DNA from: a virus
Lineage: Duplodnaviria > Caudoviricetes
Strand: one strand, 5' to 3'
Virus record (IMG/VR): IMGVR_UViG_3300042468_001294
Location: 1-52,079 of that record
Length of the DNA stretch: 52,079 bases
Position numbers and translations under genes: made by a program. The notes under the pieces were generated by a model, which was not told where the DNA came from, searched no databases, and saw only the letters and a list, made by a program, of their open reading frames with translations. Shown in pieces: positions 1 to 23,530 of the stretch (its first letter is position 1; each line of letters starts with the position of its first letter).

Positions 1-1
1 C

Positions 2-226
2 GCCCGGGCTGCCCGGGCGGCCGCCGAGCGGGGGCCCGCCGCCGCCGCCGCCCGGGCGGCCGCCCGGGCCCCCGGGGCCCCCGGCCTATGGTTCGGGGGC
101 CGGAACCGAGCCGGGGATCGGGCTGCCGAGCGGGCTGCCCGCCCGATCTGGGCTGCCGAGCGGGCTGCTGCCCGGGCGGCCGCCCGAGCCTGGGCCCGGG
201 CGGCCGCCGCCGCCGCCCAGGGCTAG
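2..226 (+). CDS. 3' part of an Ala/Arg-rich ORF whose start is probably at the far window end (52056)
   Basis: Frame 2 is open from base 2 to TAG 224-226 and reads ARAARAAAERGPAAAAARAAARAPGAPGLWFGG...RAAERAARPIWAAERAAARAAARAWARAAAAAQG*. It is followed by the same intergenic element that follows the next two genes. Confidence 0.6.
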   Translation, partial: ARAARAAAERGPAAAAARAAARAPGAPGLWFGGRNRAGDRAAERAARPIWAAERAAARAAARAWARAAAAAAQG

Positions 227-234
227 CCGCCCCC

Positions 235-305
235 GCCCCCCCGCCCGGGGGGGCCAGCCGAGAGGGCCCCGAACACGGACCCTCCCGGCTGGCAAACCCG
301 CCAGC
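235..305 (+). repeat. Structured intergenic element, copy 1 (three hairpins)
   Basis: Hairpins at 235-254, 254-292 and an alternative at 288-305; homologous to 925-993 and 1286-1354. Confidence 0.8.
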
Positions 306-328
306 ACAACCCAACCAGGAGAGCCAAA

Positions 329-916
329 ATGGCACGAGCACAGACGACAGGCAAGACCCGCACCGGAACCCGCACCGGAACCCGCACCGGAACCCAGAAC
401 CCCGAGCAGACCCAGAACCCCGAGCAGGCCCAGAACCCCGAGCAGGCCGCCCAGGCCGCCGCCGCCGAAGCCGCCGCCCAGGCCGCCGCCCAGGCCGCCG
501 CCCAGGCCGCCGCCTGGACCGAGACCATGCGGATCGACTGGCAGGCCGAGTCCGAAGCCGGGACCTTCCTGGGGACCTTCGCAGACTACCTGGCCCTGCA
601 GCAAGTCGGGGTCGGCCCCCGGGAGCGCTACACGGGTCGGATGTTGGCCCTGGTCGCAGCCCGCCAGCACTACGTGAAGGGGGGCAACGGGAACCAGCAC
701 TCGGGGGACTGGATCGGAACAGCCTTCCAAAATCTCCCCCGCACCGAAGTGGTCCGGTGCTGCATGGAGATTCTGCACCTGGAAGCCAACCCCTACACGC
801 ACCTCAACCCCGGGCAGCAGAGCATGAATCTCCGGAATAAGGTCCGGGGGGCCTGCCAGCGCGGCGAGATCCCAGTCGACCACGTGAAGGCCACGATCGC
901 GAAGTTCACGGCATAA
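329..916 (+). CDS. Early protein: low-complexity N-terminus (TRTG, QNPEQ, QAAA repeats) plus helical HLNxGxQxMNLxN domain
   Basis: GGAG SD, strong GC3 codon bias, motif shared with ORFs 7311 and 8997. Confidence 0.85.
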   Translation: MARAQTTGKTRTGTRTGTRTGTQNPEQTQNPEQAQNPEQAAQAAAAEAAAQAAAQAAAQAAAWTETMRIDWQAESEAGTFLGTFADYLALQQVGVGPRERYTGRMLALVAARQHYVKGGNGNQHSGDWIGTAFQNLPRTEVVRCCMEILHLEANPYTHLNPGQQSMNLRNKVRGACQRGEIPVDHVKATIAKFTA

Positions 917-924
917 GCCGGGGC

Positions 925-993
925 GGGGGCCGAAAGGCCCCCAGCCGAGAGGGTCCGGCAAGACGGGCCTTCCCGGCTGGGAATCCCCCCAGC
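925..993 (+). repeat. Structured intergenic element, copy 2
   Basis: GGGGGCC-GAAA-GGCCCCC; CCAGCCG..CGGCTGG long stem 941-980; GCTGGG-AATCCC-CCCAGC. Confidence 0.85.
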
Positions 994-1013
994 ACCAACC
1001 AACGGAGAGTAAG

Positions 1014-1277
1014 ATGACACAAACACTTGCACAAGCGGTCCAAGCCTACCGGACATCACAGGACGACACCGACCCCTCCGAGCAACACCGGCTGACCGAA
1101 GACGTAAGACGAGCCCTCACCGAGTCGAAGTTGCCCACGGACTTCCGCACCGTCGAGGACGACGACGAAGACGGGATTTTCGTTACCTTCCCCGACGAGT
1201 CTTACCTGAACGTGAAGCCGACCGGAGCCTGGTGGCACCACGAGGCCGAAGGTCAGCTGATCGCCAAATCGGAGTAA
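1014..1277 (+). CDS. Acidic early hypothetical protein
   Basis: GGAG SD, flanked by the repeat element. Confidence 0.8.
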   Translation: MTQTLAQAVQAYRTSQDDTDPSEQHRLTEDVRRALTESKLPTDFRTVEDDDEDGIFVTFPDESYLNVKPTGAWWHHEAEGQLIAKSE

Positions 1278-1285
1278 GCCGGGGC

Positions 1286-1354
1286 GGGGGCCTTACGGCC
1301 CCCAGCCGAGAGGGTCCGACACCACGGGCCTTCCCGGCTGGGAATCCCCCCAGC
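1286..1354 (+). repeat. Structured intergenic element, copy 3
   Basis: Stems identical to copy 2; differences are confined to loops (TTAC, ACACCA). Confidence 0.85.
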
Positions 1355-1375
1355 ACCAACCCAACGGAGAACGAA

Positions 1376-1681
1376 GTGGCACACGAAATCAGACTGACGA
1401 GCGAAGCTGCGGCGAAGCTGGAGCGCTTGTGGACCGTCTACAAGGAACTCGGACTGTCCCCCGACCAAGCCTTGGCTCTTACCATGGCCAAGGATCTGGC
1501 GGACCAACTGACAGAACAGATCCGGGCGCCCTTCTTGAACTGGCCCGAGAGCGAAGACGACACCTTCGACCTGACCGTCGAAGCCGAGAGGATGCTGGGC
1601 GAGTGGTTGGAAGATAGCCGCGAATCCTGGCGCGACGTACTGAGCGAAGTCACGCAGTACCTGACGGACAAACCGGAGTAA
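1376..1681 (+). CDS. Acidic helical early hypothetical protein (GTG start)
   Basis: GGAG SD at the same position after the repeat element as in other copies. Confidence 0.75.
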   Translation: MAHEIRLTSEAAAKLERLWTVYKELGLSPDQALALTMAKDLADQLTEQIRAPFLNWPESEDDTFDLTVEAERMLGEWLEDSRESWRDVLSEVTQYLTDKPE

Positions 1682-1689
1682 GGCCCCCC

Positions 1690-1740
1690 ATGGCCTTCCT
1701 GATTGCCCTGATCCGAGCGATACTTCGCGCAGGCAGATAA
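1690..1740 (+). CDS. Possible 16-aa peptide MAFLIALIRAILRAGR
   Basis: Fills the gap between a stop codon and the promoter; GGAG upstream; ends in TAAGCC like neighbouring genes. Confidence 0.35.
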   Translation: MAFLIALIRAILRAGR

Positions 1741-1748
1741 GCCAGCAC

Positions 1749-1777
1749 TTGACAAACCCGGGGCCCCGTGCTAAAAT
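1749..1777 (+). promoter_or_regulatory. sigma70 promoter TTGACA-17-TAAAAT with extended -10
   Basis: Consensus match; duplicated at 2285. Confidence 0.85.
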
Positions 1778-1809
1778 CGGGGTTCCCAACCGATAGAGGA
1801 GATAGCGAA

Positions 1810-2016
1810 ATGAGCAAGACCCCCGCAGACTTGGCCGCAGCCGTGGCCACCTGGGCGGAAGCCCAGCCCGAAGACACCAAGCGCGAGTGGCTGGAGCTTA
1901 GCGAGCCTTACCACGCCATGCTTAAGCAGAGCGGGCTGGGCCCGGAGTTCGACCGACTCACCCCGGACCAGCAGCACAAATTCTGGGACAAACTCGACAG
2001 CCGCTTCGTGGACTAA
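1810..2016 (+). CDS. Early hypothetical protein (MSKTPA...)
   Basis: GAGGAGATAG SD downstream of the promoter. Confidence 0.8.
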   Translation: MSKTPADLAAAVATWAEAQPEDTKREWLELSEPYHAMLKQSGLGPEFDRLTPDQQHKFWDKLDSRFVD

Positions 2017-2075
2017 GCCGCCCGGGGCCCCCGGCACCAGGGGCCCCACCCTCTTCGACCTTAGGAGAAACCAAG

Positions 2076-2276
2076 ATGACCAGCCCCCTGGACACCACTT
2101 ACGAAATCACCCTCACCCTGAAGCTGAAGGTGGATTGCGCTAACTTCGGACTTCCCTCGGAAACCCTGGCGCAAGCCATCAGCGAAGCACTCGCTGACTA
2201 CCGGCAGGTCCCGTTGACCGTCGTGGGCGACGATGAGGTCTTCATCAAGGAAGCCACCCTTGTAAACGTAGGCTAA
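2076..2276 (+). CDS. Early hypothetical protein
   Basis: TAGGAG SD after a GC hairpin at 2024-2047. Confidence 0.7.
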   Translation: MTSPLDTTYEITLTLKLKVDCANFGLPSETLAQAISEALADYRQVPLTVVGDDEVFIKEATLVNVG

Positions 2277-2284
2277 GCCTACCA

Positions 2285-2313
2285 TTGACAAACCCGGGGC
2301 CCCGTGCTAAAAT
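2285..2313 (+). promoter_or_regulatory. sigma70 promoter, identical copy of 1749-1777
   Basis: TTGACAAACCCGGGGCCCCGTGCTAAAAT. Confidence 0.85.
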
Positions 2314-2345
2314 CGGGGTTCCCGTTCACTAGAGGAGATAGCGAA

Positions 2346-2618
2346 ATGAGCAAGACCCCAGCAGCCTTTAGCAATCAGCAACTTTTGGCGCTTCGCCTTA
2401 TCGGTAACGGCTGGAATACTAAGCTCACCCCGTTTGGGAACGTGATTGTTTCCGCTCAAGCGCAAAGCCTCCAACGCGCCGGTTTGATTGTCCAAGAACC
2501 TCGCCGCTGGATGGGATATCGACTTACCGCCGCTGGCCGTACTATTGCCGCCAAGCCGACCAGGGCCCCCGGCACCGGGGGCCCCACTCTACCTTCGAAA
2601 TTAGGAGAAGCACGATGA
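2346..2618 (+). CDS. Early hypothetical protein (MSKTPA...), possibly winged-helix-like
   Basis: Same SD and first codons as 1810; LQRAGLIV...YRLTAAGR resembles a wHTH wing. Confidence 0.7.
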   Translation: MSKTPAAFSNQQLLALRLIGNGWNTKLTPFGNVIVSAQAQSLQRAGLIVQEPRRWMGYRLTAAGRTIAAKPTRAPGTGGPTLPSKLGEAR

Positions 2619-2827
2619 TCAGCGAAGACCGCAAGCAGGAGTTGACCCGCAAGGGCTACTACGTCGAAGACATGGGCGCGGAGTACGGCCCTGAATGGAA
2701 AGGGCAATTCCGTTGGATGAACAATATCGCCGCAGATTTCCAGGACGACGACACTTCCTTCAGTGTTGAGGATACCTGGGATTCCGCTGACCACCACGAA
2801 CAACACACGGGGACACAAAATGCGTAA
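2615..2827 (+). CDS. Acidic early hypothetical protein
   Basis: TAGGAG SD, ATGA overlap. Confidence 0.7.
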   Translation: MISEDRKQELTRKGYYVEDMGAEYGPEWKGQFRWMNNIAADFQDDDTSFSVEDTWDSADHHEQHTGTQNA

Positions 2828-2894
2828 GCAAGACATCCTGTTTGCCACGGCTTTTGGGCTTTGCCTCGGCATCCTGATCGGCCTGGGAATTTAA
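2820..2894 (+). CDS. 24-aa hydrophobic peptide MRKQDILFATAFGLCLGILIGLGI
   Basis: Overlaps the upstream stop, single TM-like segment, ends just before a terminator. Confidence 0.55.
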   Translation: MRKQDILFATAFGLCLGILIGLGI

Positions 2895-2901
2895 ACCCGC
2901 G

Positions 2902-2925
2902 AAGCCCGCCTTGTGCGGGCTTTTT
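2902..2925 (+). terminator. Rho-independent terminator
   Basis: AAGCCCGC-CTTGT-GCGGGCTTTTT. Confidence 0.85.
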
Positions 2926-2939
2926 CGTATCCGTCCTCA

Positions 2940-3001
2940 GCTTCGCTCTTCGGGCTTCGCAGCGGCGAGGGACACCTCGGCTTCGCTCTTCGGGCTTCGC
3001 A
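2940..3001. repeat. Direct repeat GCTTCGCTCTTCGGGCTTCGCA x2 (CTTCG-rich)
   Basis: Copies at 2940-2961 and 2980-3001. Confidence 0.85.
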
Positions 3002-3014
3002 CTTCGCCGCAAGT

Positions 3015-3104
3015 CCGAATCCGTAAGCCGACCTAGCTGAACCCCGAATCCGTAAGCCGACCTAGCTGAACCCCGAATCCGTAAGCCGACCTAGCTGAAC
3101 CCCG
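3015..3104. repeat. Perfect tandem repeat, 3 x 29 bp (CCGAATCCGTAAGCCGACCTAGCTGAACC)
   Basis: Units start at 3015, 3044 and 3073; no spacers. Confidence 0.95.
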
Positions 3105-3808
3105 GACCTTCGCACTTCGGAGTTATAGCGAAGTGCGAATTTCGAAGCCCAGAGGGAGAGGGTCTGGACCCACCTTCGGACTTACCGGAAAACCTAATTT
3201 TGAAGCCGGAAAAACAGGAACCAGGACAGCCCGAATATGATGAGAAAACATGGCGTTACCACGTTGTATACGATGTACACCGCTTATATAATTGACGTAC
3301 ATCCCCCGGCTGTGTTTTAATCTATATATTCTAAATAGTTTCGAAAAACACCTCGGAAGCCTATTTAGAAGATACTTGACGTACGGTCATGCCTTAGTTC
3401 AAAGAACGTTATATGGCCTTAGCTAGAGCCTAGATCCGACTTCCCCTTTATCATATATATACGGAAAACCCGGAAGGACGAGGGGAAAACCCCCCTGAGC
3501 ACACTTTTCCGGATTGGCTTGTGTCCAGTGGCTCTGGCATCACCGATTAGGTGTTCCACGCTGCTGTACAGTGGCTCTCGGAATATCGGAATCGGCCAGG
3601 GGGGTATTTCTGTTTTCCCGGGAACGTGGTACTGAACAGAGGGGCTTTCCCGACCCCCTCAGTTGCGTCCCAGCAACGCTAACCTTTGTCCTTGAGCCTA
3701 TCTTGGGACACCCTTTGTCCTTGGCTCGTGCTTGTTGTCCACTCGCACTTCGTGCTTGTTCCATTACCACCTTTCGCCCTTGTATCTAAGGCGGTGGTAA
3801 TGCACCTA

Positions 3809-3837
3809 TTGACAAATGTCCCTCCCTCTGTTAAAAT
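3809..3837 (+). promoter_or_regulatory. sigma70 promoter TTGACA-17-TAAAAT, extended -10
   Basis: Consensus match at the start of the second early operon. Confidence 0.85.
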
Positions 3838-3886
3838 ATATATATGGATCGAGAGTGGTCCATCACAACCCGGAGCATAGAGCATT

Positions 3887-4030
3887 ATGATCAACCAACT
3901 CGCCCTCGAATACGCGCAAGCGCTGATTCAGTACCACAAGGATCCCAGCACTTACCCGGCCTTGCTGTTCGCGCAGAATTTGCTTAACGCCGCTTGCAGC
4001 GCTGCTGCTCAAGAGGAGGCCGCCAAATGA
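3887..4030 (+). CDS. 47-aa hypothetical protein (MINQLALEY...), not in the ORF track
   Basis: GGAG SD; ATGA overlap with the next gene. Confidence 0.65.
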   Translation: MINQLALEYAQALIQYHKDPSTYPALLFAQNLLNAACSAAAQEEAAK

Positions 4031-4239
4031 TCAAGATTGGTGACACCGTGTGGGTGCAGCCTTGGGGCGATGCCGCCCCTGTTCAGCGTGTTGTTGAATA
4101 CATGGAGCTTTGCGACTCCGTTCGTGGCAAGCACGGCAAGCCTGTGACCACTGCTGATCTCGCCACCCAGGCCGATCGTTTGGTGGTCGATTTCGTCGGT
4201 AACAATGGCTGGGCGTATGGTACCCAGATACGGGTATGA
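4027..4239 (+). CDS. Small SH3/KOW-like hypothetical protein
   Basis: MIKIGDTVWV start; coupled overlaps. Confidence 0.7.
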   Translation: MIKIGDTVWVQPWGDAAPVQRVVEYMELCDSVRGKHGKPVTTADLATQADRLVVDFVGNNGWAYGTQIRV

Positions 4240-4577
4240 TTAAGACTTTTGTGTCCCCCCGCTTGACTCACCGCTACGTGGGTACTTGCAAACATCTTGA
4301 TCGCTGGTCATTCAAAGCTTTTCGGGTGACTTTCACTCCGGAGCGTCTTGTTGATCGGGGTAATCGCTTCGACGACTACGGGGCCACCATTAGATGGGCC
4401 ACCTTGCCAGCCGGTGTCGACCGAGCTTTGGTCGAACGAGCCATAGTCGAGACGCTTTCCCGCGAAGGCTGCCACCACGACTACGACTGCTGCGGCTGCC
4501 TCTCGTATCGTGTCCGTGTTCTGCACCGCAAGGGCAGACGTCTAGTGCTCAAGACCACCTACTCAAGGAACTATTGA
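4236..4577 (+). CDS. Hypothetical protein with CHHDYDCCGC metal-binding motif
   Basis: ATGA overlap; Cys/His cluster. Confidence 0.7.
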   Translation: MIKTFVSPRLTHRYVGTCKHLDRWSFKAFRVTFTPERLVDRGNRFDDYGATIRWATLPAGVDRALVERAIVETLSREGCHHDYDCCGCLSYRVRVLHRKGRRLVLKTTYSRNY

Positions 4578-4771
4578 TGCTCGCCACCTCAATCGCCGCC
4601 GCCGCCAAGGTGGCTAATTACACCGCCCAGCAATGCAAGTGGGCGATTGCTGACTGCCACGACACATTGAAGGTCGGTGGTTACGAATACGAACATCCCT
4701 ATGCCCAGAAGTTGTGGGCGGAGATCGATGCTTGCCGCGACCGTCTGAAGGTACTCACACCATGTACTTAG
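4577..4771 (+). CDS. Hypothetical protein
   Basis: TGATG overlap, AAGGA SD. Confidence 0.65.
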   Translation: MLATSIAAAAKVANYTAQQCKWAIADCHDTLKVGGYEYEHPYAQKLWAEIDACRDRLKVLTPCT

Positions 4772-4917
4772 TCACAAAACACTTTGTCTCTGGTCTTCTT
4801 GCAGGGCTACATATCACTGAGCAAACCCGGGTACGTTACGTGGTTGGGGTGCTTTACACACCTTGCGCGGGCTCCAGTAGTTACGTGGTGACGGGCATCG
4901 AGGAGGTCCCGACATGA
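4762..4917 (+). CDS. Hypothetical protein (MYLVTKHF...)
   Basis: Tiles the operon, ATGA overlap. Confidence 0.55.
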   Translation: MYLVTKHFVSGLLAGLHITEQTRVRYVVGVLYTPCAGSSSYVVTGIEEVPT

Positions 4918-5126
4918 GCAATTACCCAAACATGAGTTACTGCATGAACCAGAACACCTTAACTGCCTTGCAGCAGGTTGTGGATACCATGCAAGAGGAT
5001 GGGGTTGCCTTCTTGCGCGACCTTTCGCACGACGAACGTCGCGCCTTCCACGAATTGTTCAGCACCAGCCAGGAATTCCAGCGCTTGGCTGAAGAATTGC
5101 AAAGTGAATTAGAAGCCGGGGGTTGA
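4914..5126 (+). CDS. Hypothetical protein (MSNYPNMSYC...)
   Basis: GAGGAGG SD. Confidence 0.75.
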   Translation: MSNYPNMSYCMNQNTLTALQQVVDTMQEDGVAFLRDLSHDERRAFHELFSTSQEFQRLAEELQSELEAGG

Positions 5127-5151
5127 CAAACCCTACTGCCCCTGTTAAAAT
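5123..5151 (+). promoter_or_regulatory. sigma70 promoter TTGACA-17-TAAAAT, extended -10
   Basis: Consensus match followed by a GAGGAGATAG SD. Confidence 0.85.
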
Positions 5152-5181
5152 AGGTATTTTAACGATAGAGGAGATAGACGA

Positions 5182-5370
5182 ATGCCCCCTGTGCGAACGT
5201 ACATCAGCCGCAATCCCCAGGTTCCCAACACCCCGGTGTTGTTCAATATCGTCACCGACCACCTTAGCATGACCTGCTGGTTGAGCGACGAGCAAACCCG
5301 CATCATCCGCGATTCCCTAAACCTTGTTCTTGGAGAGCAAACATGCCCCGTACAGTCGACATCCAACTGA
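5182..5370 (+). CDS. Hypothetical protein
   Basis: Strong SD. Confidence 0.7.
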   Translation: MPPVRTYISRNPQVPNTPVLFNIVTDHLSMTCWLSDEQTRIIRDSLNLVLGEQTCPVQSTSN

Positions 5371-5579
5371 CCGACGAAGACCTCATCGCCATGGGTTATC
5401 CCTTGGTGTCCATCGGCTACCTGTCCACCTGGGCACTCGATGCCTACGACACCGTGACCATCTTTCGCGATGGTCGATCGCTTGACATGGTGGCCCACTT
5501 CCGCAGCACCGCCACAGGCAGGACATACACCATAGGTGCTGTCCGGAACGCAGACGGTAGCTACGGGTACCACTCCTGA
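5343..5579 (+). CDS. Hypothetical protein (ends YGYHS)
   Basis: GGAG SD. Confidence 0.7.
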   Translation: MPRTVDIQLTDEDLIAMGYPLVSIGYLSTWALDAYDTVTIFRDGRSLDMVAHFRSTATGRTYTIGAVRNADGSYGYHS

Positions 5580-5603
5580 GGCACGGAGCGTTTTCACAGC
5601 AAC

Positions 5604-5629
5604 CGGGTAGCTATATAGGTAGCTACCCG
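5604..5629. promoter_or_regulatory. Intergenic inverted repeat CGGGTAGCTA-TATAGG-TAGCTACCCG
   Basis: Perfect 10-bp arms; core recurs inverted at 13732-13746. Confidence 0.5.
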
Positions 5630-5654
5630 CCCCCTTTTAAAAAGGAAAGACGCC

Positions 5655-6023
5655 ATGCAAGTCATTAAACTCCGACCCGATGTCCTAGGTAATCACGGTG
5701 GTGCGCGTGTCTACATCAATGGCCGCCGCTGCAGTGTCTCCTCGGTTCGTCGATACACCGAATACAACAACCTCGTTTACGGCGAAAACCGCAATATCGA
5801 AGCTCGCGTGGCTCGCGCCAAAGAGCTTGGCCACCCGCTAGTGTGGATCAACCTGGAGTCCAGTGTAGTCTGCAGCGATCCCGGGTATTACGAACGTCAA
5901 GCAGCCCTTTGGGCTGACGCGCCAAGGATCATGACTGGCGATTTTGTAGACTTCGACGGTGAAGTGTTCAAGGTCGAGCCCACACACAACGGCAATTTCC
6001 AACTCATCCCCCGCAAGCCATGA
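5655..6023 (+). CDS. Hypothetical protein
   Basis: AGGA SD, coupled to the next gene. Confidence 0.75.
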   Translation: MQVIKLRPDVLGNHGGARVYINGRRCSVSSVRRYTEYNNLVYGENRNIEARVARAKELGHPLVWINLESSVVCSDPGYYERQAALWADAPRIMTGDFVDFDGEVFKVEPTHNGNFQLIPRKP

Positions 6024-6208
6024 AGTTCAACGACGCACAAATTGCAACGCTCCGCGCCGAATGGTCGAAGATCCGGAGCGTCGATCCAGGTATGCCTGCC
6101 TACAAACGTCTGATCACGTTTCTCGACAAGCTGCCACCCTCTCTTCTGGAGCAACTCGCTAACGAACAGATTCCGTTCGTTAGCGGCTTAGCGAGAAACC
6201 GAGTTTAA
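6020..6208 (+). CDS. Hypothetical protein
   Basis: ATGA overlap. Confidence 0.7.
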   Translation: MKFNDAQIATLRAEWSKIRSVDPGMPAYKRLITFLDKLPPSLLEQLANEQIPFVSGLARNRV

Positions 6209-6210
6209 TC

Positions 6211-6483
6211 ATGTACTACGTCCAATTCTACCAAAAGAGCGCAATTAGCGACGCGCTGATCGAAGCCAACGGCGATCGAAGTGTTGTAATACTCGACGGT
6301 CGCTGCTCCAGGCAGTGGATGGGCGAGACTGCCGCCGCTGAATGCAAAAGACGCGGATACCTCGCTTGGCGTATCTTTCGGGGTGAATCGTTCACGCGAA
6401 GCGCGCCAGTCAGCCAACTTTGGTATGCGAACACCACTACACCAACACGCAATCCAGCGTGGCTGGGTGCAATGGGGATGTAA
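6211..6483 (+). CDS. Hypothetical protein
   Basis: Tiles the operon; ILDGR motif. Confidence 0.7.
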   Translation: MYYVQFYQKSAISDALIEANGDRSVVILDGRCSRQWMGETAAAECKRRGYLAWRIFRGESFTRSAPVSQLWYANTTTPTRNPAWLGAMGM

Positions 6484-6491
6484 GCAAACCA

Positions 6492-6520
6492 TTGACAAAC
6501 CCTCTCTGGTCTGGTATAAT
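6492..6520 (+). promoter_or_regulatory. sigma70 promoter TTGACA-17-TATAAT, extended -10
   Basis: Perfect consensus. Confidence 0.9.
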
Positions 6521-6549
6521 TGGTGTACCAAATATAGAGGAGTGCCCCC

Positions 6550-6783
6550 GTGGACTACATAGCGCAAATCCCAACACACATCGACGGCATCCCCTGCTTG
6601 GTCGGTGTCACTTGCCACGAGCCTATCGTGCCCGCCACGTGGCACGACCCTGCCGAAGGTGGCGAGGTCGAGTGGAGAATTCTCGACAGCCGTGGTCGAG
6701 TGGCACCCTGGCTGGAACGCAAGCAGAACAGCGTAACCATCGAAAGGTTGATCAATGACTACTTCCTTCGCCTCGATCGCTGA
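6550..6783 (+). CDS. Conserved small phage protein (GIPCLVGV...ILDSRGRVAPWLERK)
   Basis: GAGGAG SD; recurrent phage motif. Confidence 0.75.
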   Translation: MDYIAQIPTHIDGIPCLVGVTCHEPIVPATWHDPAEGGEVEWRILDSRGRVAPWLERKQNSVTIERLINDYFLRLDR

Positions 6784-6931
6784 AGCCGTGGCGTACTACC
6801 TCAAAAGGGGGTACACCTCGACCAGCGATCAAGCACCATTCACCCGCTGGATGAAGTCGGCCACTGGCCAGCTTGTTCGCATTGAGCAGGTCGACTTTCT
6901 GACGGTGAAGGTGTCCCCGGAAAATGATTAA
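6755..6931 (+). CDS. 58-aa hypothetical protein (MTTSFASIAEAVAYY...), not in the ORF track
   Basis: Fills the gap between 6783 and 6924. Confidence 0.5.
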   Translation: MTTSFASIAEAVAYYLKRGYTSTSDQAPFTRWMKSATGQLVRIEQVDFLTVKVSPEND

Positions 6932-7247
6932 GATCGGTGACCTCATCATAGAGAAGCCGACGAAGCTGCTGCGGCAGGACGGTGAGTATACGTGCTCCGC
7001 CGGTACCTACGCAGTAAATTACACCGTCAACGACCTCGGAGTCGGTGGTTACATGACCGAGGTACCTGGGGTCGACCCTGGTGGCCACCGTTGTGTGATC
7101 TTCCTCGGTGGTGGTTGGTTCAGCAACACTAATTTGGAGGTACCAAATTACAATGGTCTTGGAAAATTCGAATCGACCGTAGATACTTTGCCAGTGGTCG
7201 GCAAATTCCAGACACAACTCGTGCCGAATCCGCAGTCACTACAATAG
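6924..7247 (+). CDS. Hypothetical protein
   Basis: MIKIGD start as in ORF 4027. Confidence 0.7.
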   Translation: MIKIGDLIIEKPTKLLRQDGEYTCSAGTYAVNYTVNDLGVGGYMTEVPGVDPGGHRCVIFLGGGWFSNTNLEVPNYNGLGKFESTVDTLPVVGKFQTQLVPNPQSLQ

Positions 7248-7276
7248 TTGACACACGAACGAGCCTGTGTTAAACT
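7248..7276 (+). promoter_or_regulatory. sigma70 promoter TTGACA-17-TAAACT, extended -10
   Basis: Consensus match. Confidence 0.8.
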
Positions 7277-7310
7277 CCAGTTTCCCTAGTTGATAGAGAG
7301 GTTTTTCCCC

Positions 7311-7898
7311 ATGTTCACAGTAGACAATACCCCCGTTCAAATCGTCAGCGTTTCTGGTGGCTGGACTACCGTTCAGTTCCAGGATGGTTCGACGAAGAAG
7401 GTTCGCAACTCAACCATCGTAGAGGTCAAAGTGGAAAAGAAGAAGGAAGCAAGCAAGATCGCCAAGATCAAGGAAACGCAGATCGACCTGAGCCGGTACT
7501 TCGTGTCCGACCAGAAGACGCCCTCGGGCCGCAAGACGATCGACTGCAACGACGAGATCGGCGTCGAACTCCGTGGCCGTGCCATCGACGAAGTGTACAC
7601 GGTCGCCGCCGAGCGACTGGGAACCACAGTCGATGCCTTGCGCAGCCAATACGGTCACCTCAATGTCGGCATGCAGCGCATGAACCTGGGCAACCGCATT
7701 CGTGGTGCCGGTCCCGCCCAGCAGAAGGCTGCTGCCCGGTTGCAGCGAGCCGCTGAACGCGAAGAGGCCGCACAGGCTCGCGCCATCGAACGTGCCCGCA
7801 TCGACGCCGAAAAGGCTGAGGCCAAGCGGCTGCGCGATGCTGAACTGGTGGCCAAGCGAGCGGCAAAGAAGGCCGTTGAAGAGGTGGCAATCGCCTAG
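7311..7898 (+). CDS. Basic protein with the HLNxGxQRMNLGN helical domain and Ala/Lys/Arg-rich tail
   Basis: GAGG SD; paralogue of 329 and 8997. Confidence 0.85.
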   Translation: MFTVDNTPVQIVSVSGGWTTVQFQDGSTKKVRNSTIVEVKVEKKKEASKIAKIKETQIDLSRYFVSDQKTPSGRKTIDCNDEIGVELRGRAIDEVYTVAAERLGTTVDALRSQYGHLNVGMQRMNLGNRIRGAGPAQQKAAARLQRAAEREEAAQARAIERARIDAEKAEAKRLRDAELVAKRAAKKAVEEVAIA

Positions 7899-7927
7899 TT
7901 GACACCGGGGGACGGCGGTGGTATACT
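7899..7927 (+). promoter_or_regulatory. sigma70 promoter TTGACA-17-TATACT, extended -10
   Basis: Consensus match. Confidence 0.85.
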
Positions 7928-7970
7928 ACCAATGTCCCCCACCCCACACATAGACTAGAGGATAGACAGC

Positions 7971-8216
7971 ATGGCAATCACTAGCACCGACTACCTGGGC
8001 CGCGAATGTACACTCGTGCACGAGAGCATGAACGAGCCAGTGAAAATTGACGAAGTGGTGAAATCCTTTCGAGGTGAGCCCTACCGAGTGATCGGTGGCC
8101 GAGCACCTCACAAATCCAGTTCGCAAGGCAAAGTCTGGTACGGCGATCCGCAGGACGAGCAAATCGGCGGCGAGTTTTACCCCTCGGTGCTGGGCTTGCA
8201 GTGGCGGCTGGCATGA
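7971..8216 (+). CDS. Conserved small phage protein (PHKSSSQGKV...EFYPSV)
   Basis: GAGGA SD. Confidence 0.75.
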   Translation: MAITSTDYLGRECTLVHESMNEPVKIDEVVKSFRGEPYRVIGGRAPHKSSSQGKVWYGDPQDEQIGGEFYPSVLGLQWRLA

Positions 8217-8344
8217 AGAAGGACAAGGGTTTCATTCTCGAAACGCTGGAAGGTACCAGTAGCTGGGTCCTGGTACCCATCGCAATAGTCGTTGGTGTTT
8301 TTGTGGCAGTCATTAACGCAGCACTCAAGATCGGGAGACAGTGA
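8213..8344 (+). CDS. 43-aa single-TM protein, not in the ORF track
   Basis: ATGA and TGATG overlaps; hydrophobic segment WVLVPIAIVVGVFVAVINAAL. Confidence 0.6.
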   Translation: MKKDKGFILETLEGTSSWVLVPIAIVVGVFVAVINAALKIGRQ

Positions 8345-8589
8345 TGAAGCAACGTCAATTTTTCAACCACCCAGCCCACCACCGAACCGGTGGCATTGCC
8401 TCCCGCGACCAAGCGTTTGCGTTGTGCGTAGATCGCACACACCGAGCCAACGACGCCATGTCTTTGATCATCGCAGGGGGACCTTTGGATGCCTGCGAAG
8501 TGATACCGGCAGGCGGCTGCAATTCCAACGTCTGGACCGACTGGCAAGGCGTACCTGTGCCAACCGTGTCCGGCATCGATCGCCCCTGA
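8344..8589 (+). CDS. Hypothetical protein
   Basis: GGGAG SD. Confidence 0.6.
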   Translation: MKQRQFFNHPAHHRTGGIASRDQAFALCVDRTHRANDAMSLIIAGGPLDACEVIPAGGCNSNVWTDWQGVPVPTVSGIDRP

Positions 8590-8600
8590 GGAGCAGCGTG

Positions 8601-8840
8601 ATGAAGTATTGGGTCGCGATGACTGACACATTCATGTCGGGCTGGGTGCACGATATGCGCATCAGCAAACTCGTGGTCGAATGTGACGACTACAAGCAAG
8701 CACTTTCAATTCACGGCCGCGCCCAGCGCAGGCCGGAAATGAAGTACATCAACATCCATGTCCGTCAACCTTCTTACGACGCACTTCGTTTTGTGGTGAG
8801 CACCAAGAGGTTCGACGAAATCCTATGGGAACACGTATGA
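8601..8840 (+). CDS. Conserved small phage protein (MTDTFMSGW...RPEMKYI)
   Basis: GAGGAG SD. Confidence 0.7.
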   Translation: MKYWVAMTDTFMSGWVHDMRISKLVVECDDYKQALSIHGRAQRRPEMKYINIHVRQPSYDALRFVVSTKRFDEILWEHV

Positions 8841-9064
8841 GAACCCTCGACGAACGTTGGGCGGCAGCACACGCTAACGGTACCCCCGAACTGCCCCTGT
8901 TGGCCGAGTTGGTCAGCCAGCAGGACACCGACGATAACCTTTACAACCGAGTGACGCAGCTAATCTGCAGCGCACTCGCACACTTGGAGAAGAAAGATGC
9001 TGACAAAGCGATTTTCTACGCGAAGCGCGACCTTGGAGAGTGTCGAGCACTCCTTGACTGCTGA
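8837..9064 (+). CDS. Hypothetical protein
   Basis: ATGA overlap. Confidence 0.6.
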   Translation: MRTLDERWAAAHANGTPELPLLAELVSQQDTDDNLYNRVTQLICSALAHLEKKDADKAIFYAKRDLGECRALLDC

Positions 9065-9539
9065 CCCCGCTCCGGAGTATACTCCGGGTGATTCCGTGAT
9101 GTACCGGGGGGATCCGGAGAATGTCTGGAGGGTGATCCATGTTGAAAGGGGCGTTAGCTGCTGGTGGACAAGGGCTGCGCAAAATAGCGTAAATCAGTCA
9201 TTCCCTGCCAACGTTTTCACCCGCATTGAGCGTCTGCGCGTGGCGAAAGTCGAGACTCCGAAAGTCGAGAAGATCGAGAAGCCGAAGCCGGTGACGATCG
9301 AGACGCCAAAGCCCGACCGTATCGCTGCACTCCTGGCTGAGGCCAGGGGATTGGACGAGGTGATCGAGATTGCCCGACTCGCCGGGATCGATTACACCAA
9401 AGACGAGGCGCGATCGCCAGGGCTGCAGCGTATGTACCTCGGTAACCTGCTGCGCAACAAAATGAAGCGAGGTGAATTCGACCCCGAGTCGATTTACTGG
9501 ACTGGACAAGGTTTTGCCCCCCGTGCATCACCTGTATAG
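8997..9539 (+). CDS. Protein with N-terminal SH3-like part and divergent GLQRMYLGN helical domain (true start probably 9054 or later)
   Basis: Motif shared with 329 and 7311. Confidence 0.7.
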   Translation: MLTKRFSTRSATLESVEHSLTADPAPEYTPGDSVMYRGDPENVWRVIHVERGVSCWWTRAAQNSVNQSFPANVFTRIERLRVAKVETPKVEKIEKPKPVTIETPKPDRIAALLAEARGLDEVIEIARLAGIDYTKDEARSPGLQRMYLGNLLRNKMKRGEFDPESIYWTGQGFAPRASPV

Positions 9540-9685
9540 CACATGCAGTTCTCGCCGGTTGGGGGGTTTGTAAGTTCGTAAACCGGCGGGATCTCCAAAG
9601 CAAGTAACGCCATTGCAATGTGTTTCGGCGTGACACCTCGGAGAGACGAGGACCAACATTCATTTAACACCGGAGATAGAGCAAA

Positions 9686-9961
9686 ATGGCAATTCCGAGC
9701 GTTTCAATCACAGATCCGAAGTTCATCTACCAAAACAGCGTGACGACTGATATTCGCAACCTTTGGCGTAAACACGGCTGGGCACCCCCTCAACGAATCA
9801 AGTCCCGGGTACGAAAGGTTGACATCCTGCAAGGCGGGCAGTTGATTGCGACCGTCGACCGACTCGACGACCACGCTACTCTGGTTGACGTCAAGACTCG
9901 CAACGGGATCGATTGGTTTCAACTGCAGCGAGAGGTGCAAAATGTGTTCCGACCAAGGTAG
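9686..9961 (+). CDS. Hypothetical protein
   Basis: GGAGATAG SD. Confidence 0.75.
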   Translation: MAIPSVSITDPKFIYQNSVTTDIRNLWRKHGWAPPQRIKSRVRKVDILQGGQLIATVDRLDDHATLVDVKTRNGIDWFQLQREVQNVFRPR

Positions 9962-10069
9962 GAAGCCCCGCACGGACGGCGTGGGTAGGCTGTTTTTGAT
10001 CGTCGCTGGTGCTGTGGCTGCTGCAGCATTGTTCGTTACCGTGGTTGGTTTGTTAATTTACATAATCAA

Positions 10070-10282
10070 ATGACCGAACGCAATTACGATACTGTCTCTG
10101 ATCTGACGATGAGAAACGTTTTTCGCGGGGAAGGTCTTGCATACCGACGCCGCTGTTTCGAATGTAATCAATCGAAAGAACAAACAGGTGGTTCAACGAG
10201 CAAGAAGCTCAAAATCTGGCGGTGCGCTGCTTGCACGACGAAAGCGAAGTCCGGGGTTGACAAACCCGCCGCCCCTTGTTAA
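10070..10282 (+). CDS. Small zinc-finger-like protein (CFEC...CAAC)
   Basis: Two CxxC pairs. Confidence 0.6.
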   Translation: MTERNYDTVSDLTMRNVFRGEGLAYRRRCFECNQSKEQTGGSTSKKLKIWRCAACTTKAKSGVDKPAAPC

Positions 10283-10285
10283 AAT
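10257..10285 (+). promoter_or_regulatory. sigma70 promoter TTGACA-17-TAAAAT, extended -10
   Basis: Consensus match followed by GAGGAGATAG. Confidence 0.85.
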
Positions 10286-10307
10286 AGAGTTTTTAGAGGA
10301 GATAGAT

Positions 10308-10556
10308 ATGGCCATCGAAAAGTGGACACAACACGACGAGGAGCTTTTGGCCCAAATGCAAGCTCGACGAGAGCGAGTTCATCAAGCCACGAGAAAGCCA
10401 CTCCAGCAATTCATCGATTTGTCGATGCCTACGGTGACCGAGCGTGAAGCTGTGATGTTGGTCACTGACTGGATGATCGCGAATGCCAAGTTCCTACGTG
10501 ATCTTCTTGAGCCATTTGATGACGGAGTGCGCCCGCCATGCGTAAATCAGGAATGA
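10308..10556 (+). CDS. Hypothetical protein
   Basis: Strong SD. Confidence 0.75.
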   Translation: MAIEKWTQHDEELLAQMQARRERVHQATRKPLQQFIDLSMPTVTEREAVMLVTDWMIANAKFLRDLLEPFDDGVRPPCVNQE

Positions 10557-10792
10557 CTGTCCGGGAATTGGTCCAGTGGCTCTCCACGTTCAAAGATCAG
10601 GACGCTGAAGTGGAAGTGATACGGCACAATCGTAGTACAAGCTGCTACGACCAAGGCGGCAGTATTAATGTTGTGGCGTTTGATCCCGACAAGCACACGA
10701 CATATCTCGACCTGCGCGGCAACCCGTTTGTCAAACCCGATGCGCCTTTTTATGGCAAACGGACGCTGTTGTTAGGTGAAACGGACGCATAA
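10553..10792 (+). CDS. Hypothetical protein (MTVRELVQWL...)
   Basis: ATGA overlap. Confidence 0.7.
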   Translation: MTVRELVQWLSTFKDQDAEVEVIRHNRSTSCYDQGGSINVVAFDPDKHTTYLDLRGNPFVKPDAPFYGKRTLLLGETDA

Positions 10793-10814
10793 CTTTCTTA
10801 GGAGATAGATACAT

Positions 10815-11135
10815 ATGAGCAAGCACACACCGGGGCCATGGCGAGCCACACTAGCGCCCTCACAATGCGAGGGTGTCAACGTGCAATTTTGCATCGATAC
10901 GGGGGGAGCGATCAGTATCGCGTATGGCCAAAGCCAGGAACACTTAGCCGACTATCGCGAGGCTGTGCTTGAAGAGCAGTGTCGCGCTAATGCTCTGCTT
11001 ATTGCCGCCGCGCCTGATCTGCTGGAGGTAGCAAAGCTCGCTCTGCGTATGGGTGTATATGGTGGCGTGTCCCCCAGCACTGTAGAAGACGCCGCCCGCG
11101 CCGCCATCGCCAAAGCTACCAGAGAAGCGAAATGA
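10815..11135 (+). CDS. Conserved phage protein (HTPGPW...ANALLIAAAPDLL)
   Basis: Common phage motif, GGAGATAG SD. Confidence 0.8.
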   Translation: MSKHTPGPWRATLAPSQCEGVNVQFCIDTGGAISIAYGQSQEHLADYREAVLEEQCRANALLIAAAPDLLEVAKLALRMGVYGGVSPSTVEDAARAAIAKATREAK

Positions 11136-11455
11136 AGTGGTACAACAAGCATAAGACAAATGAACTGACCGGAGCCGCCCTGGATTGGGCTGTGCACATA
11201 GCTCAAGGGCTGGGTGATGAGATCTATGGTCCGTACTCCACATCCTGGCAGGAGGGCGGGCCGATCATCGACCGAGAGATCACGCTTATGGCACTGAACA
11301 AACCCGACTGCCAAGCAACGATCATTCAAGGCGCAAATGCTTGGACAGCCTTCGGTCCCACCCCGCTCATCGCAGCTATGCGCTGCTTCGTCGCCTCCCG
11401 CCTGGGCGACACCATCAACATCCCCGCTAATTGGCCAGAGAGGAGCAAGACATGA
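11132..11455 (+). CDS. NinX/DUF2591-like phage protein
   Basis: LTGAALDWAV...YSTSWQEGGPII...GPTPLIAAMRCFV motifs. Confidence 0.75.
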   Translation: MKWYNKHKTNELTGAALDWAVHIAQGLGDEIYGPYSTSWQEGGPIIDREITLMALNKPDCQATIIQGANAWTAFGPTPLIAAMRCFVASRLGDTINIPANWPERSKT

Positions 11456-11577
11456 AACAGAAGTACGAAGGCCAGGGCTTGGAGAGGTTCTGGCACACCC
11501 TGCTCACCTTCGCCATCATCGGCGCGGTGTCGGTGCTGGGGTGGAGTCTGTATGTGCTGTGGAGGGTACTGACATGA
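11452..11577 (+). CDS. 41-aa single-TM protein, not in the ORF track
   Basis: ATGA overlaps at both ends, AGGAG SD. Confidence 0.6.
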   Translation: MKQKYEGQGLERFWHTLLTFAIIGAVSVLGWSLYVLWRVLT

Positions 11578-11951
11578 CTGACCTGAGAGACGCTGCGCAT
11601 CAGGCACTGGAGGCGTTGGAGAGCACGCAGCTTTTTGCGGCGCATGAGCACTACCCGCGCCGGCGTGTTGCTGACACCCTCGACGCCCTCCGCGCCGCGC
11701 TGGAGCAGACGGAGCAGGAGCCGGTGGCTCGGTTTGACGAGCGATACGGTGGACCAGTCTTGCTGGCAAGTGCGCCGATGTTGCGTGACGGCCAACTGTT
11801 ATATACCGACCCACCCCGCCGCGAGTGGCGGTCGTTGAGTGAGGAGGAGATTCTCCCGCGCTATCTAGGCCGCATGCTGTACAGCCACGCGGAGATGCTT
11901 GAGTTTTCCCGCGCCATCGAGGCCGCTTTAAGGAGCAAGAACCATGAGTGA
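11574..11951 (+). CDS. Modular phage protein (QALEAL...EQEPVA...RAIEAALRSKN)
   Basis: GGAGG SD; motifs typical of proteobacterial phage accessory genes. Confidence 0.75.
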   Translation: MTDLRDAAHQALEALESTQLFAAHEHYPRRRVADTLDALRAALEQTEQEPVARFDERYGGPVLLASAPMLRDGQLLYTDPPRREWRSLSEEEILPRYLGRMLYSHAEMLEFSRAIEAALRSKNHE

Positions 11952-12480
11952 CCTACGAACCGCCGCCCAGCAGGCGCTGGAGCAGCCGGAGCAGGGGCCG
12001 GTGGCGTGGCCGAAGGGGCGTGATCTATTTCTGCGCGATGACATGGGGAAAGGTCAACTGCGCGTCATGTTCGACGGCGACAACGATGTAATCGTGGCGA
12101 TCTGGCCCCATGACAAACCTTCCGCATCGGTGGAGTTTTGCAATGGATTCAACGGCGGTGGCAAGTCATTGGAGACACGCAAGGCGCTGATCGCGCTGAT
12201 GTGTGCGATGGAGCGTGACGGCGCACACGCCAGACCGCACGTCGATAACACTGGCCCTCTGCCCCGCGCCGCGCTGGAGCAGCCGGAGCAGGACACCGAC
12301 TGCCACGCGCAGGGCATCTGCCAGCGCAGCGGATACGGCATAGGGCAGCCGGAGCAGGTCGTTCCCTACGCCGTATGGCGGCAGGGCTTCGACGCTGTGA
12401 GGAAATACAAGGAGCAGTCGGATCAAGGCGGCAAAACCGGATGGCCTCCAGGCCAAGCTGAAGGAGTTGAACCACCATGA
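11944..12480 (+). CDS. Modular phage protein with EQPEQ repeats
   Basis: AAGGAG SD; shares DNA repeats with the upstream gene. Confidence 0.7.
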   Translation: MSDLRTAAQQALEQPEQGPVAWPKGRDLFLRDDMGKGQLRVMFDGDNDVIVAIWPHDKPSASVEFCNGFNGGGKSLETRKALIALMCAMERDGAHARPHVDNTGPLPRAALEQPEQDTDCHAQGICQRSGYGIGQPEQVVPYAVWRQGFDAVRKYKEQSDQGGKTGWPPGQAEGVEPP

Positions 12481-12989
12481 CTGAACAAACCAAAGTCGAG
12501 CCAGTTGGTGAGGTCTACAGACATGGCAAAGATTCACACGGGCGGCAATGGCATGGGGTCCACTGGTACGACCCTAATCTGGATGTGCCGACAGGAACAA
12601 AACTCTTCATCCACGCACCTTACCAGACAAACCCCTGGCGCGATGCCGTAGACCATGAGCTTTCAACCCTGCACATGGTCGCCAGCGATGACCCGCGAGA
12701 GTCCATTCGACGCCTGATCAATTGGCACTGCGCTGTGCAGATCGACCCGCTGGTTTCCTCCGCCGCTCAAGCACTTATTGAACGGGGACGGAAAGAAGCG
12801 TTGGGGCAGCCCGCCGAATGCCATTGGGTACAAGATGGTCATGAAGACTCAGAAACCTGGGCCGCATCGTGCAGCAGACACCGATACTTCTCGCTAAACG
12901 AAGGGACTCCCAAAGACAACCACATGAAGTATTGTTGCTACTGTGGTAAACCTTTGGTGGAAGTACCATTTGAAGCGGAGGACAAATAA
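12477..12989 (+). CDS. Phage protein with C-terminal Zn ribbon (YCCYCGK)
   Basis: ATGA overlap, AAGGAG SD. Confidence 0.75.
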   Translation: MTEQTKVEPVGEVYRHGKDSHGRQWHGVHWYDPNLDVPTGTKLFIHAPYQTNPWRDAVDHELSTLHMVASDDPRESIRRLINWHCAVQIDPLVSSAAQALIERGRKEALGQPAECHWVQDGHEDSETWAASCSRHRYFSLNEGTPKDNHMKYCCYCGKPLVEVPFEAEDK

Positions 12990-13234
12990 TGCGTGACCCG
13001 ATCTGGGATGCAATGAAACAGCATTCCCGTGAGAAATTCGACGCTGATCGTGCTCGATTTTTGGCACAAGCACAAACCGAGGACGATGGTGGTTGGATGA
13101 AGCACACCGAATACCACTGGTCGCGGTACGTGAACGGGGAACGCCTGGATTATTGGCCAAGCCGTAAGAAGTTCCAGTGGCGCGGCAAGGTGCAGCGTGG
13201 TGATGTGATGAAGATTGTGAAAGGACAGGCATGA
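12989..13234 (+). CDS. Hypothetical protein (HTEYHWSR...LDYWPSRKK)
   Basis: GGAGG SD, TAATG overlap. Confidence 0.75.
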   Translation: MRDPIWDAMKQHSREKFDADRARFLAQAQTEDDGGWMKHTEYHWSRYVNGERLDYWPSRKKFQWRGKVQRGDVMKIVKGQA

Positions 13235-13470
13235 CCCGCGACGACATCATTAAGTGGGCGCAGCAGGCCGGTATCAAATTACCGGATGGTCCGTTCCCAG
13301 AACGTGGCTCGTTCGACTTGCCTGAAGTGATTCGCTTGTCTGGTTTGGCTTACGCCGCTGGAACTGCTGCCGAGCACAAGAGATGTGTCGAAAGAGTAAA
13401 CATCGCGTTACTTGGTTGCGAGATATCCATCCGTGACAGGGTAATACGCGCTTTGGAGGTAAAATCGTGA
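13231..13470 (+). CDS. Hypothetical protein (MTRDDIIKWAQQAG...)
   Basis: ATGA overlap. Confidence 0.7.
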   Translation: MTRDDIIKWAQQAGIKLPDGPFPERGSFDLPEVIRLSGLAYAAGTAAEHKRCVERVNIALLGCEISIRDRVIRALEVKS

Positions 13471-13682: not shown

Positions 13683-13791
13683 CGTTCTGGAAGATTCCGG
13701 GGGCTTCTCTCCTTTTTAGAGATATATAGCCAGCTACCTATATAGCCATGTACTCAGCCAAAAACAGCGGTGGCCCCACGGGAGCCCACCC

Positions 13792-16844: not shown

Positions 16845-16846
16845 GT

Positions 16847-17887: not shown

Positions 17888-17913
17888 TTTGAGTCTATCT
17901 CCTATGAAAGAAA

Positions 17914-23528: not shown

Positions 23529-23530
23529 GA

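Follow-up and report, generated by a model that had tools for sequence, protein, structure and literature searches.

In the 52,079-base IMG/VR virus record IMGVR_UViG_3300042468_001294, analyzed here over its whole length and referred to as the window, T is strongly depleted on the sense strand of the five genes that open a small-gene operon (positions 329-2276). This avoidance is a strand-specific, base-specific and position-graded constraint on the sense strand, and it is among the strongest base-specific codon anomalies in our comparison set of 22 phage genomes, whole or nearly so, and 33 control loci. The T-poor region forms the start of the operon, which diverges from the terminase genes, and the upstream part of the region crosses the contig ends. 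The record is classed as linear and is 100% complete by CheckV estimate, and by its gene content the phage appears to belong with those that carry 2-aminoadenine (Z). As T on the sense strand means Z on the template in such DNA, the initial annotation had proposed that the DNA that unmodified host RNA polymerase reads first is kept poor in Z.

We called 84 open reading frames (ORFs) with a codon-score caller that recovered genes 1-5, its calls being rough for other small genes; genes 1-4 have the four lowest values of T at third codon positions among them. Codons ending in T number 5 of 195 in ORF 329-916 and 5 of 87 in ORF 1014-1277, where A-ending codons are more common (19 and 17, respectively). 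The counts are 5/101 in ORF 1376-1681, 3/68 in ORF 1810-2016 and 7/66 in ORF 2076-2276, and T-ending codons become frequent in ORF 2346-2618 (23/90), as had been claimed. The hand counts of the initial annotation (60 G/C bases at 51984-52043, 27 A/T in bases 1-240 and the two ORF counts of 5) were all exact, and its remark that A-ending codons outnumber T-ending ones in ORFs 329 and 1014 agrees with these data.

To quantify the depletion, we compared the first five genes with the other 79 ORFs. At NNY codons, T/(T+C) is 7/100 in genes 1-5 and 1338/3470 elsewhere (Fisher p = 1.3e-12), while at NNR codons A/(A+G) is 35/110 versus 1159/2627 (p = 0.011). Four-fold sites have 6.0% T versus 23.5% in the rest, 11.9% A versus 16.2% and 53% C versus 29%. 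Depletion in the five genes is thus 4- to 5-fold for T and about 1.3-fold for A. Amino-acid content, which the initial annotation had named as a possible full explanation, falls well short of one: the observed T counts in genes 1-5 are 54, 34, 44, 24 and 35, and those expected from amino acids and genome codon usage are 91, 46, 60, 37.5 and 45; from gene 6 onward, observed and expected T are equal. Tests that are neutral to GC content gave the same direction, with ratios in genes 1-5 versus the rest of 16:32 versus 1832:1266 for four-fold T:A (p = 5e-4), 8:11 versus 466:225 for serine TCC+TCG:AGC (p = 0.026) and 8:39 versus 414:819 for leucine TTR:CTN (p = 0.017). Noncoding DNA is also affected, with 8.7% T and 17.3% A in 1-2345 versus 22.3% T and 26.1% A in 2346-14244. 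Over the first ~2.3 kb, the sense strand is therefore T-poor at both synonymous and noncoding sites, as first noted, and its template would be Z-poor. Gene by gene, T/(T+C) runs 0.04, 0.10, 0.17, 0.12 and 0.19 and then lies at 0.28-0.44 (genome, 0.41), and the T-poor block stops exactly at the second copy of a promoter cassette, which makes for a sharp boundary. Phage sequence is contained in 24 lake-water metagenome runs, none of them listed as an RNA run, and in all four runs compared, one of which may be the source of the window, Logan contigs cover 485-3000 with zero differing letters. Chance and artefact are excluded as sources of the T bias, and the anomaly is a real and unusually strong case of compositional heterogeneity in phage early regions.

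The + strand from 329 to about 14,244 carries small genes, mostly without known function. The remaining genes lie on the - strand, from 51,618 down to 14,216, and start with the small and large terminase subunits, followed by portal, capsid, tape-measure and tail genes. Next come an AEP primase, SNF2 and UvrD helicases and a family-A polymerase, and then purZ, a mazZ-like pyrophosphohydrolase gene, a datZ-like HD hydrolase gene and a D12-class adenine methyltransferase gene. PurZ, an adenylosuccinate-synthetase homologue, is 44-52% identical to the PurZ proteins of phages S-2L, phiVC8 and SH-Ab 15497, and genes for dATP-clearing enzymes of the DatZ and MazZ types and for the family-A polymerase adjoin purZ. 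Short-read contigs read Z as A. A separate observation is that the methyltransferase domain (14216-15343, - strand) is of the D12-class N6-adenine DNA type and stands in a phage whose gene content predicts adenine-free DNA; its substrate could be Z, the DNA of the host or RNA.

The bias recurs in other purZ phages. In all eight complete or near-complete purZ records that we examined, which form a siphovirus-like lineage, terL and terS lie on one strand with a gap of 375-1141 nt to a diverging operon, and a homologue of the first clear gene of the window (ORF329) is gene 1, 2 or 3 of that operon. These same-position homologues, 33-61% identical to ORF329, are T-poor in 8/8 records whatever the genome GC (record GC, 0.48 to 0.59). 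A weaker graded T bias is present at the same operon start in four of seven related purZ records (G034, G035, G036 and G055). In G036, T/(T+C) is 0.17, 0.12, 0.16, 0.22, 0.25, 0.27, 0.29, 0.30 and 0.41 over nine genes (genome, 0.41); in G035, it is 0.08, 0.19, 0.18 and 0.16 and then 0.22-0.42 (genome, 0.35); and in G034, it is 0.16, 0.12, 0.11, 0.19 and 0.05 and then mixed (genome, 0.30), with G055 similar. On the A side, values remain close to that of the genome in all the operons compared. We also examined phiVC8, a phage with a demonstrated Z genome. According to the annotation of its record, T/(T+C) is 49/208 in the first four genes of its leftward early operon and 774/1998 in the remainder of the operon (odds ratio 0.49, p = 1e-5), with no change on the A side (p = 0.30). 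The ORF329-like gene of phiVC8 sits ~6 kb further into this operon, where its T/(T+C) is a normal 0.46, so the bias follows operon position and not gene identity. ZP6 has a weak trend only, and the early genes of T7 (0.44-0.49 versus 0.53, lowest odds ratio 0.83) have no such bias. The odds ratios of the window, 0.16 for T and 0.86 for A, were unreached in any scanned genome or in the 33 control loci.

ORF 329-916 is a real gene. The N-terminal half of its product is encoded by tandem 12- and 18-nt repeats, and its C-terminal domain is conserved, with the motif NPYxHLNPGQQSMNLRNKxRG invariant in 52 homologues. The closest homologues, 66-78% identical, are on Logan contigs, and a metagenome scan returned distant homologues only. 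Searched as a single protein in IMG/VR, ORF329 had no match; a relative is encoded at 31 IMG/VR loci (L099-L129). Of these 31 records, 13 have a purZ-like gene, as do 6/6 of those with a completeness of 90% or more. A search of 50,697 cultured-phage records gave 20 weak matches, 18 from the phiVC8 group (in phiVC8 itself at 32538-33230) and 2 from Alteromonas phage ZP6 (33554-33991), both of which are purZ phages; megablast of 1-8000 against the same records gave no match. The family thus appears to be found only with purZ and to be a marker of purZ phages, and as a by-product of this analysis we propose that it would be the first product of their early operon. It has no Pfam family and only weak matches to two PHROGs families of unknown function. 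Its AlphaFold model (pLDDT 78.4) had no PDB match by Foldseek at E <= 0.001 and no usable Atlas match. A list of 116 dZ-associated domains, which may or may not include the ORF329 family, is given in 10.1101/2025.10.22.683976.

Avoidance of Z in a weaker, quantitative form is a possible, if somewhat doubtful, account of the bias, and we put it forward tentatively. The block would be the promoter-proximal end of a putative early operon, beside the packaging genes, in a phage whose purZ, we infer, denotes a Z-type genome; it would likely be part of the DNA that enters the cell and is transcribed first. Selection would keep the sense strand T-poor and would weaken with distance from the operon start, and fewer T residues on the sense strand would mean fewer 2-aminoadenines in the strand copied by unmodified host RNA polymerase before phage proteins are made. 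If Z affects that polymerase, the result would be less slowing or stalling and less stall-triggered repair. The G/C-only leader, which is A-poor too, would be a separate element outside this mechanism. The constraint would act on U in the mRNA or on Z in the template strand, two targets that sequence alone does not separate. We lean slightly toward Z because all T-specific cases seen to date at the start of an early operon come from purZ phages (of two gene-content lineages), because T7 is without the bias and because Z in the template is reported to inhibit two RNA polymerases, that of T7 and human Pol II (Tan et al. 2022, ACS Chem Biol 17:1672). A bolder version, which we regard as distinctly unlikely, would have Z phages grade template Z along the first operon, such that naive host polymerase and stall-triggered repair meet almost no Z until the first phage proteins appear; the ORF329 family, as the first of these, may adapt transcription to Z-DNA or protect it.

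Several observations weigh against Z avoidance and keep this lean weak: most scanned purZ genomes are unbiased, the positives are mostly of one lineage, two consensus promoters feed T-normal genes and the leader's lack of A is unexplained. We defined a T-specific run by a T odds ratio of <=0.5 together with an A odds ratio of >=0.67. No such run was found in 8 of the 14 purZ genomes scanned (G019, G018, G025, G027, G031, S-2L, SH-Ab 15497 and PMBT28), of which S-2L is T- and A-poor throughout and therefore uninformative. Five of the six positive purZ genomes share one lineage, so the positives are not independent, and in G027, G031 and G025 there is little T bias beyond the ORF329 homologue itself. 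Genome-wide T/(T+C) versus A/(A+G) did not differ between purZ and non-purZ genomes. The expectation that other purZ phages would share the bias thus held for four of the seven relatives and for phiVC8, and failed for the majority of the purZ genomes scanned. As for the concern that phages lacking purZ might have the same bias, neither T7 nor any of six whole purZ-negative records equals the window, but two of the six come part of the way: G002 has an operon start rich in G and C at third codon positions, with T/(T+C) of 23/216 (odds ratio 0.21) and A also depleted (0.52), and G013 has a T-specific run (odds ratios 0.44 for T and 0.87 for A) that covers an ArdC-like gene and terminase genes, not an early operon. 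No purZ-negative relative of this module was found, because the ORF329 family occurs only with purZ; the PolA relatives G018, G019 and G020 share the replication module only. In the window itself, the promoters at 2285 and 3809 feed straight into T-normal genes, and host polymerase could arrive at these no later than at the T-poor ones. The leader (1-328 and the last 104 bases) has 40 A and 25 T in 432 nt and is thus A-poor too, which would not be expected from avoidance of Z on the template alone. Finally, shifts in relative synonymous codon usage in genes 1-5 correlate with those in late, highly expressed genes (Spearman rho = 0.56, p = 5e-6). The reading first proposed is supported in part: the T-specific bias of the sense strand stands, and the near-pure G/C leader, in which A is depleted along with T, falls outside it.

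The last correlation is also the starting point for an account in which the mRNA is what is selected. Transcripts that must act within seconds would gain fast translation and resistance to U-dependent endoribonucleases from U-poor, C-ending codons, a GC-rich leader and hairpins, independently of the base carried by the DNA. C-ending codons are indeed raised in both genes 1-5 and the late highly expressed genes; three intergenic elements fold into two conserved hairpins that resemble processing or stabilizing sites; the gradient is compatible with expression that declines along the operon; and the start of the purZ-negative G002 operon is likewise C/G-ending. The capsid gene, a late gene that is the most expressed and the best proxy for a translational optimum, nevertheless avoids A far more than T (four-fold T:A of 42:8), the opposite sign to the 16:32 of genes 1-5, and the T/(T+C) of 0.07-0.09 in the block lies far past its 0.26. 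The early genes of T7 are unbiased, and, with no search aimed at the point, we know of no described case of U-poor early messages in phages. Translational optimization explains part of the shift, not its sign or size, and we judge selection on the mRNA to be a rather unlikely source of the bias.

A mutational gradient, which we rate as very unlikely, would have the complementary strand undergo, close to the operon start or the end of the genome, changes from purine to G, whether by deamination of 2-aminoadenine (yielding guanine directly) while single-stranded or by misinsertion of G opposite T at scarce dZTP, and the sense strand would drift from T to C. That T is replaced specifically by C at four-fold sites, that noncoding DNA is affected as well and that T/(T+C) rises smoothly with distance in G036 and G035, in likeness to the strand-asymmetric gradient of vertebrate mitochondrial DNA, all fit such a drift, but the boundary in the window is sharp at the second promoter cassette. 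No process is known that would leave only the template strand exposed in this region; with transcription or a rightward fork, the exposed strand would be expected to be the sense strand. The terminase genes across the gap lack a consistent matching bias (in the window, terS is at 0.45 and terL at 0.23; in G027, G035 and G036, they are near the genome value). We also considered that the block might have been acquired recently from a relative of higher GC, through recombination at the repeated cassette, such that its composition is that of the donor. The block ends exactly at cassette copy 2, with copy 1 536 nt upstream, the GC of the five genes is 0.58-0.69 versus 0.54 for the genome, and the tandem GC-rich repeats in the leader and the ORF329 N terminus suggest fast local turnover. 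A high-GC donor should, however, be A-poor as well, and A/(A+G) is 0.30-0.32 versus 0.39-0.44; the same-position homologues are T-poor rather than at the composition of their own genomes, and the phiVC8 homologue, elsewhere in its operon, is T-normal. The GC-rich genes and the cassette boundary thus stand on the side of import, a possibility raised at the outset, and the sparing of A, the GC-neutral tests and the composition of the homologues oppose it, which makes it highly improbable in our view.

The leader is unusual in its own right (Table 1). A second G/C-only run, of 59 bases, lies at 28-86, and bases 1-240 contain only 27 A/T (12 A and 15 T). As RNA, 51984-52043 folded no better than shuffles (z +0.25). 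Separately, this run and a G/C-only run in G034, ~720 nt upstream of its ORF329 homologue, each have at least four close G-runs (and C-runs), motifs with the potential for G-quadruplex formation on the sense strand or in an RNA leader. GC-rich blocks of 100-200 nt (GC, 0.83-0.85) lie upstream of the ORF329 homologue in three other records (G025, G034 and G035), and G034 has a 41-nt G/C run there, so the leader is a shared element that is much expanded in the window. The open frame from 52056 crosses the contig end, so part of the leader may be a low-complexity gene; the 9-mer GAGGAGATA before this ATG also stands before the ATGs at 1810 and 2346. The candidate promoter at 51943-51971 was not called in the consensus scan because the rule requires A at position 2 of the second hexamer. 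Further upstream, 51640-51870 could be an operator, origin or packaging site.

A two-hairpin element of ~100 nt precedes each of genes 1, 2 and 3, with z scores of -3.3 to -3.7 versus shuffles; it is GC-rich and has no T-run. Copies B and C are 91% identical over 92 nt, and there was no further copy in the window, no Rfam match and no IMG/VR match as a DNA pattern. These elements could be processing or stabilizing sites of a polycistronic message. The scan for sigma-70-type promoters gave three 11/12 matches (1749, 2285 and 3809) versus 0.8 expected by chance. None was called in 1-1748, and genes 1-3 lie upstream of the first. The first two are in a 95-nt cassette whose copies (1738-1832 and 2274-2368) are 88% identical and 536 nt apart. 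Between the second and third promoters, 3015-3104 holds three perfect overlapping copies of a 32-nt unit at a spacing of 29 nt, with no clear gene, flanked by an inverted repeat (2988-3019 and 3116-3147).

Table 1. Coordinates of features in the window (RBS, ribosome-binding site)
Feature	Positions	Strand	Remarks
AT-rich stretch between terS and the G/C run	51640-51870		ATATATA runs and three GAGGACCAA(G/A)T-like words
Candidate promoter TTGCGC-17-TTTAAT, spacer ending TGg	51943-51971	+	read by eye; points toward the contig end
60-base G/C-only run	51984-52043	+	alternating G-runs and C-runs; longest in the window
RBS GAGGAGATA, ATG at 52056 and 8 codons (MPCPPAPA)	52043-52079	+	putative ORF; frame runs off the contig
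Extreme-GC leader (or remainder of a low-complexity ORF)	1-328	+	A 10.4%, T 5.2%; repeated palindromic motif CCCGGGCGGCCGCC
Two-hairpin intergenic element, copy A	224-328	+	-48.4 kcal/mol, z -3.25; ends in the RBS of ORF 329
Gene 1, ORF329 (195 aa)	329-916	+	52 homologues; first clear gene
Two-hairpin intergenic element, copy B	914-1013	+	-56.1 kcal/mol, z -3.68
Gene 2 (87 aa)	1014-1277	+	no known family
Two-hairpin intergenic element, copy C	1275-1375	+	z -3.64
Gene 3 (101 aa from GTG after RBS)	1376-1681	+	no known family
Sigma-70-type promoter TTGACA-17-TAAAAT with TG (extended -10)	1749-1777	+	cassette copy 1
Gene 4 (68 aa)	1810-2016	+	
Gene 5 (66 aa)	2076-2276	+	closes the T-poor block
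Sigma-70-type promoter, extended -10	2285-2313	+	cassette copy 2; marks the end of the T-poor block
Gene 6	2346-2618	+	first T-normal gene; leader and first codons in common with gene 4
Third consensus sigma-70-type promoter, extended -10	3809-3837	+	
Z cluster	15989-20544	-	datZ-like, mazZ-like, purZ, dCMP deaminase, family-A DNA polymerase
datZ-like (YfbR-like/HD) hydrolase	15989-16561	-	
mazZ-like dATP/dGTP pyrophosphohydrolase	16551-16844	-	
purZ	16847-17887	-	PF00709, E 1.2e-30
dCMP deaminase	18168-18578	-	
DNA_pol_A, family-A DNA polymerase	18706-20544	-	
Terminase large subunit	49731-50978	-	diverges from the early operon
Terminase small subunit	50962-51618	-	diverges from the early operon

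The ends of the contig probably reflect an assembly break in an extreme-GC stretch rather than genome termini, because the depth of Logan contigs over the first ~400 bases is 3 to 6 times below that over 500-3000 (four runs) and because a 407-nt contig of run X1 reaches 22 nt past base 1. Some sequence between 52079 and 1 may thus be lacking. Many unrelated GC-rich contigs, with short-sided joints, also map to parts of 1-480, and we did not use these as evidence.

Elsewhere in the window, two genes at 22281-23588 (- strand) match Pfam families named after cyanophage Pam3 (gp34-like, E 4e-70; gp33-like, E 3e-30). Given these matches and the lake-water origin of all 24 runs, the host may be a freshwater cyanobacterium. 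No tRNA and no Rfam match were found in the window. A 478-aa gene without a Pfam family (43925-45361, - strand) has 163 IMG/VR relatives, of which the 80 kept are 78-87% identical, and in 23 mapped loci (GC, 0.39-0.67) it stands behind a gene of 743-1203 aa (45368-47851, - strand, in the window), a striking conservation across very different phages. Its candidacy as the terminase was dropped, the terminase genes being those at 49731-51618. Its relatives were also rejected as controls for the early region because they share that gene and its large neighbor, not the architecture of the window; purZ was found in 0 of the 21 records with such loci that were searched.

How host RNA polymerase copes with a fully adenine-replaced genome is a question that both Z phages and engineered Z-DNA raise. 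The available parts of three sources on Z and transcription (10.1101/2025.10.22.683976, PMC12944874 and PMC8065100) contain no mention of a T-poor early region, and PMC12944874 asks whether polymerases transcribe dZ templates efficiently. If Z avoidance is correct, the T-poor block would be the first genomic trace of the cost of a modified base to transcription at the start of an early operon, and it would point to a way in which fully modified genomes start up in the cell. Should Z not be the cause, a strong base-specific codon anomaly and a protein family that marks purZ phages would still remain; the link to genome modification is testable and potentially important.

Among known systems, the early region of T7 offers the nearest layout. 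Small early genes of T7 form a polycistronic unit with hairpins between them that are RNase III sites, and its strong host-type promoters cluster near one genome end. The window has three sigma-70 matches toward one end of the record and, between its small genes, hairpins that are putative processing sites. Unlike the window, T7 has early genes without T avoidance and unmodified DNA; in the window, three genes precede the first consensus promoter, and ORF329 has neither a solved-structure match by Foldseek nor an assigned function. The Z phages S-2L, phiVC8, SH-Ab 15497 and PMBT28 resemble the window in a purZ that is 44-52% identical, with datZ-like, mazZ-like and family-A polymerase genes beside it, but neither so GC-extreme a leader nor T avoidance of this strength was seen when these four cultured phages were scanned; phiVC8 alone has a moderate bias. 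In vertebrate mitochondrial DNA, silent sites favor C over T along one strand in a manner graded with distance from a fixed point, whereas the gradient in the window spans 2-5 kb, has a sharp boundary and has no known single-stranded intermediate. Highly expressed genes under translational selection share with the first five genes the preference for C- over T-ending codons and the correlated shift in codon usage. The bias in the window differs from theirs in that its T:A sign is opposite to that of the capsid gene, it reaches noncoding DNA and it is about three times stronger.

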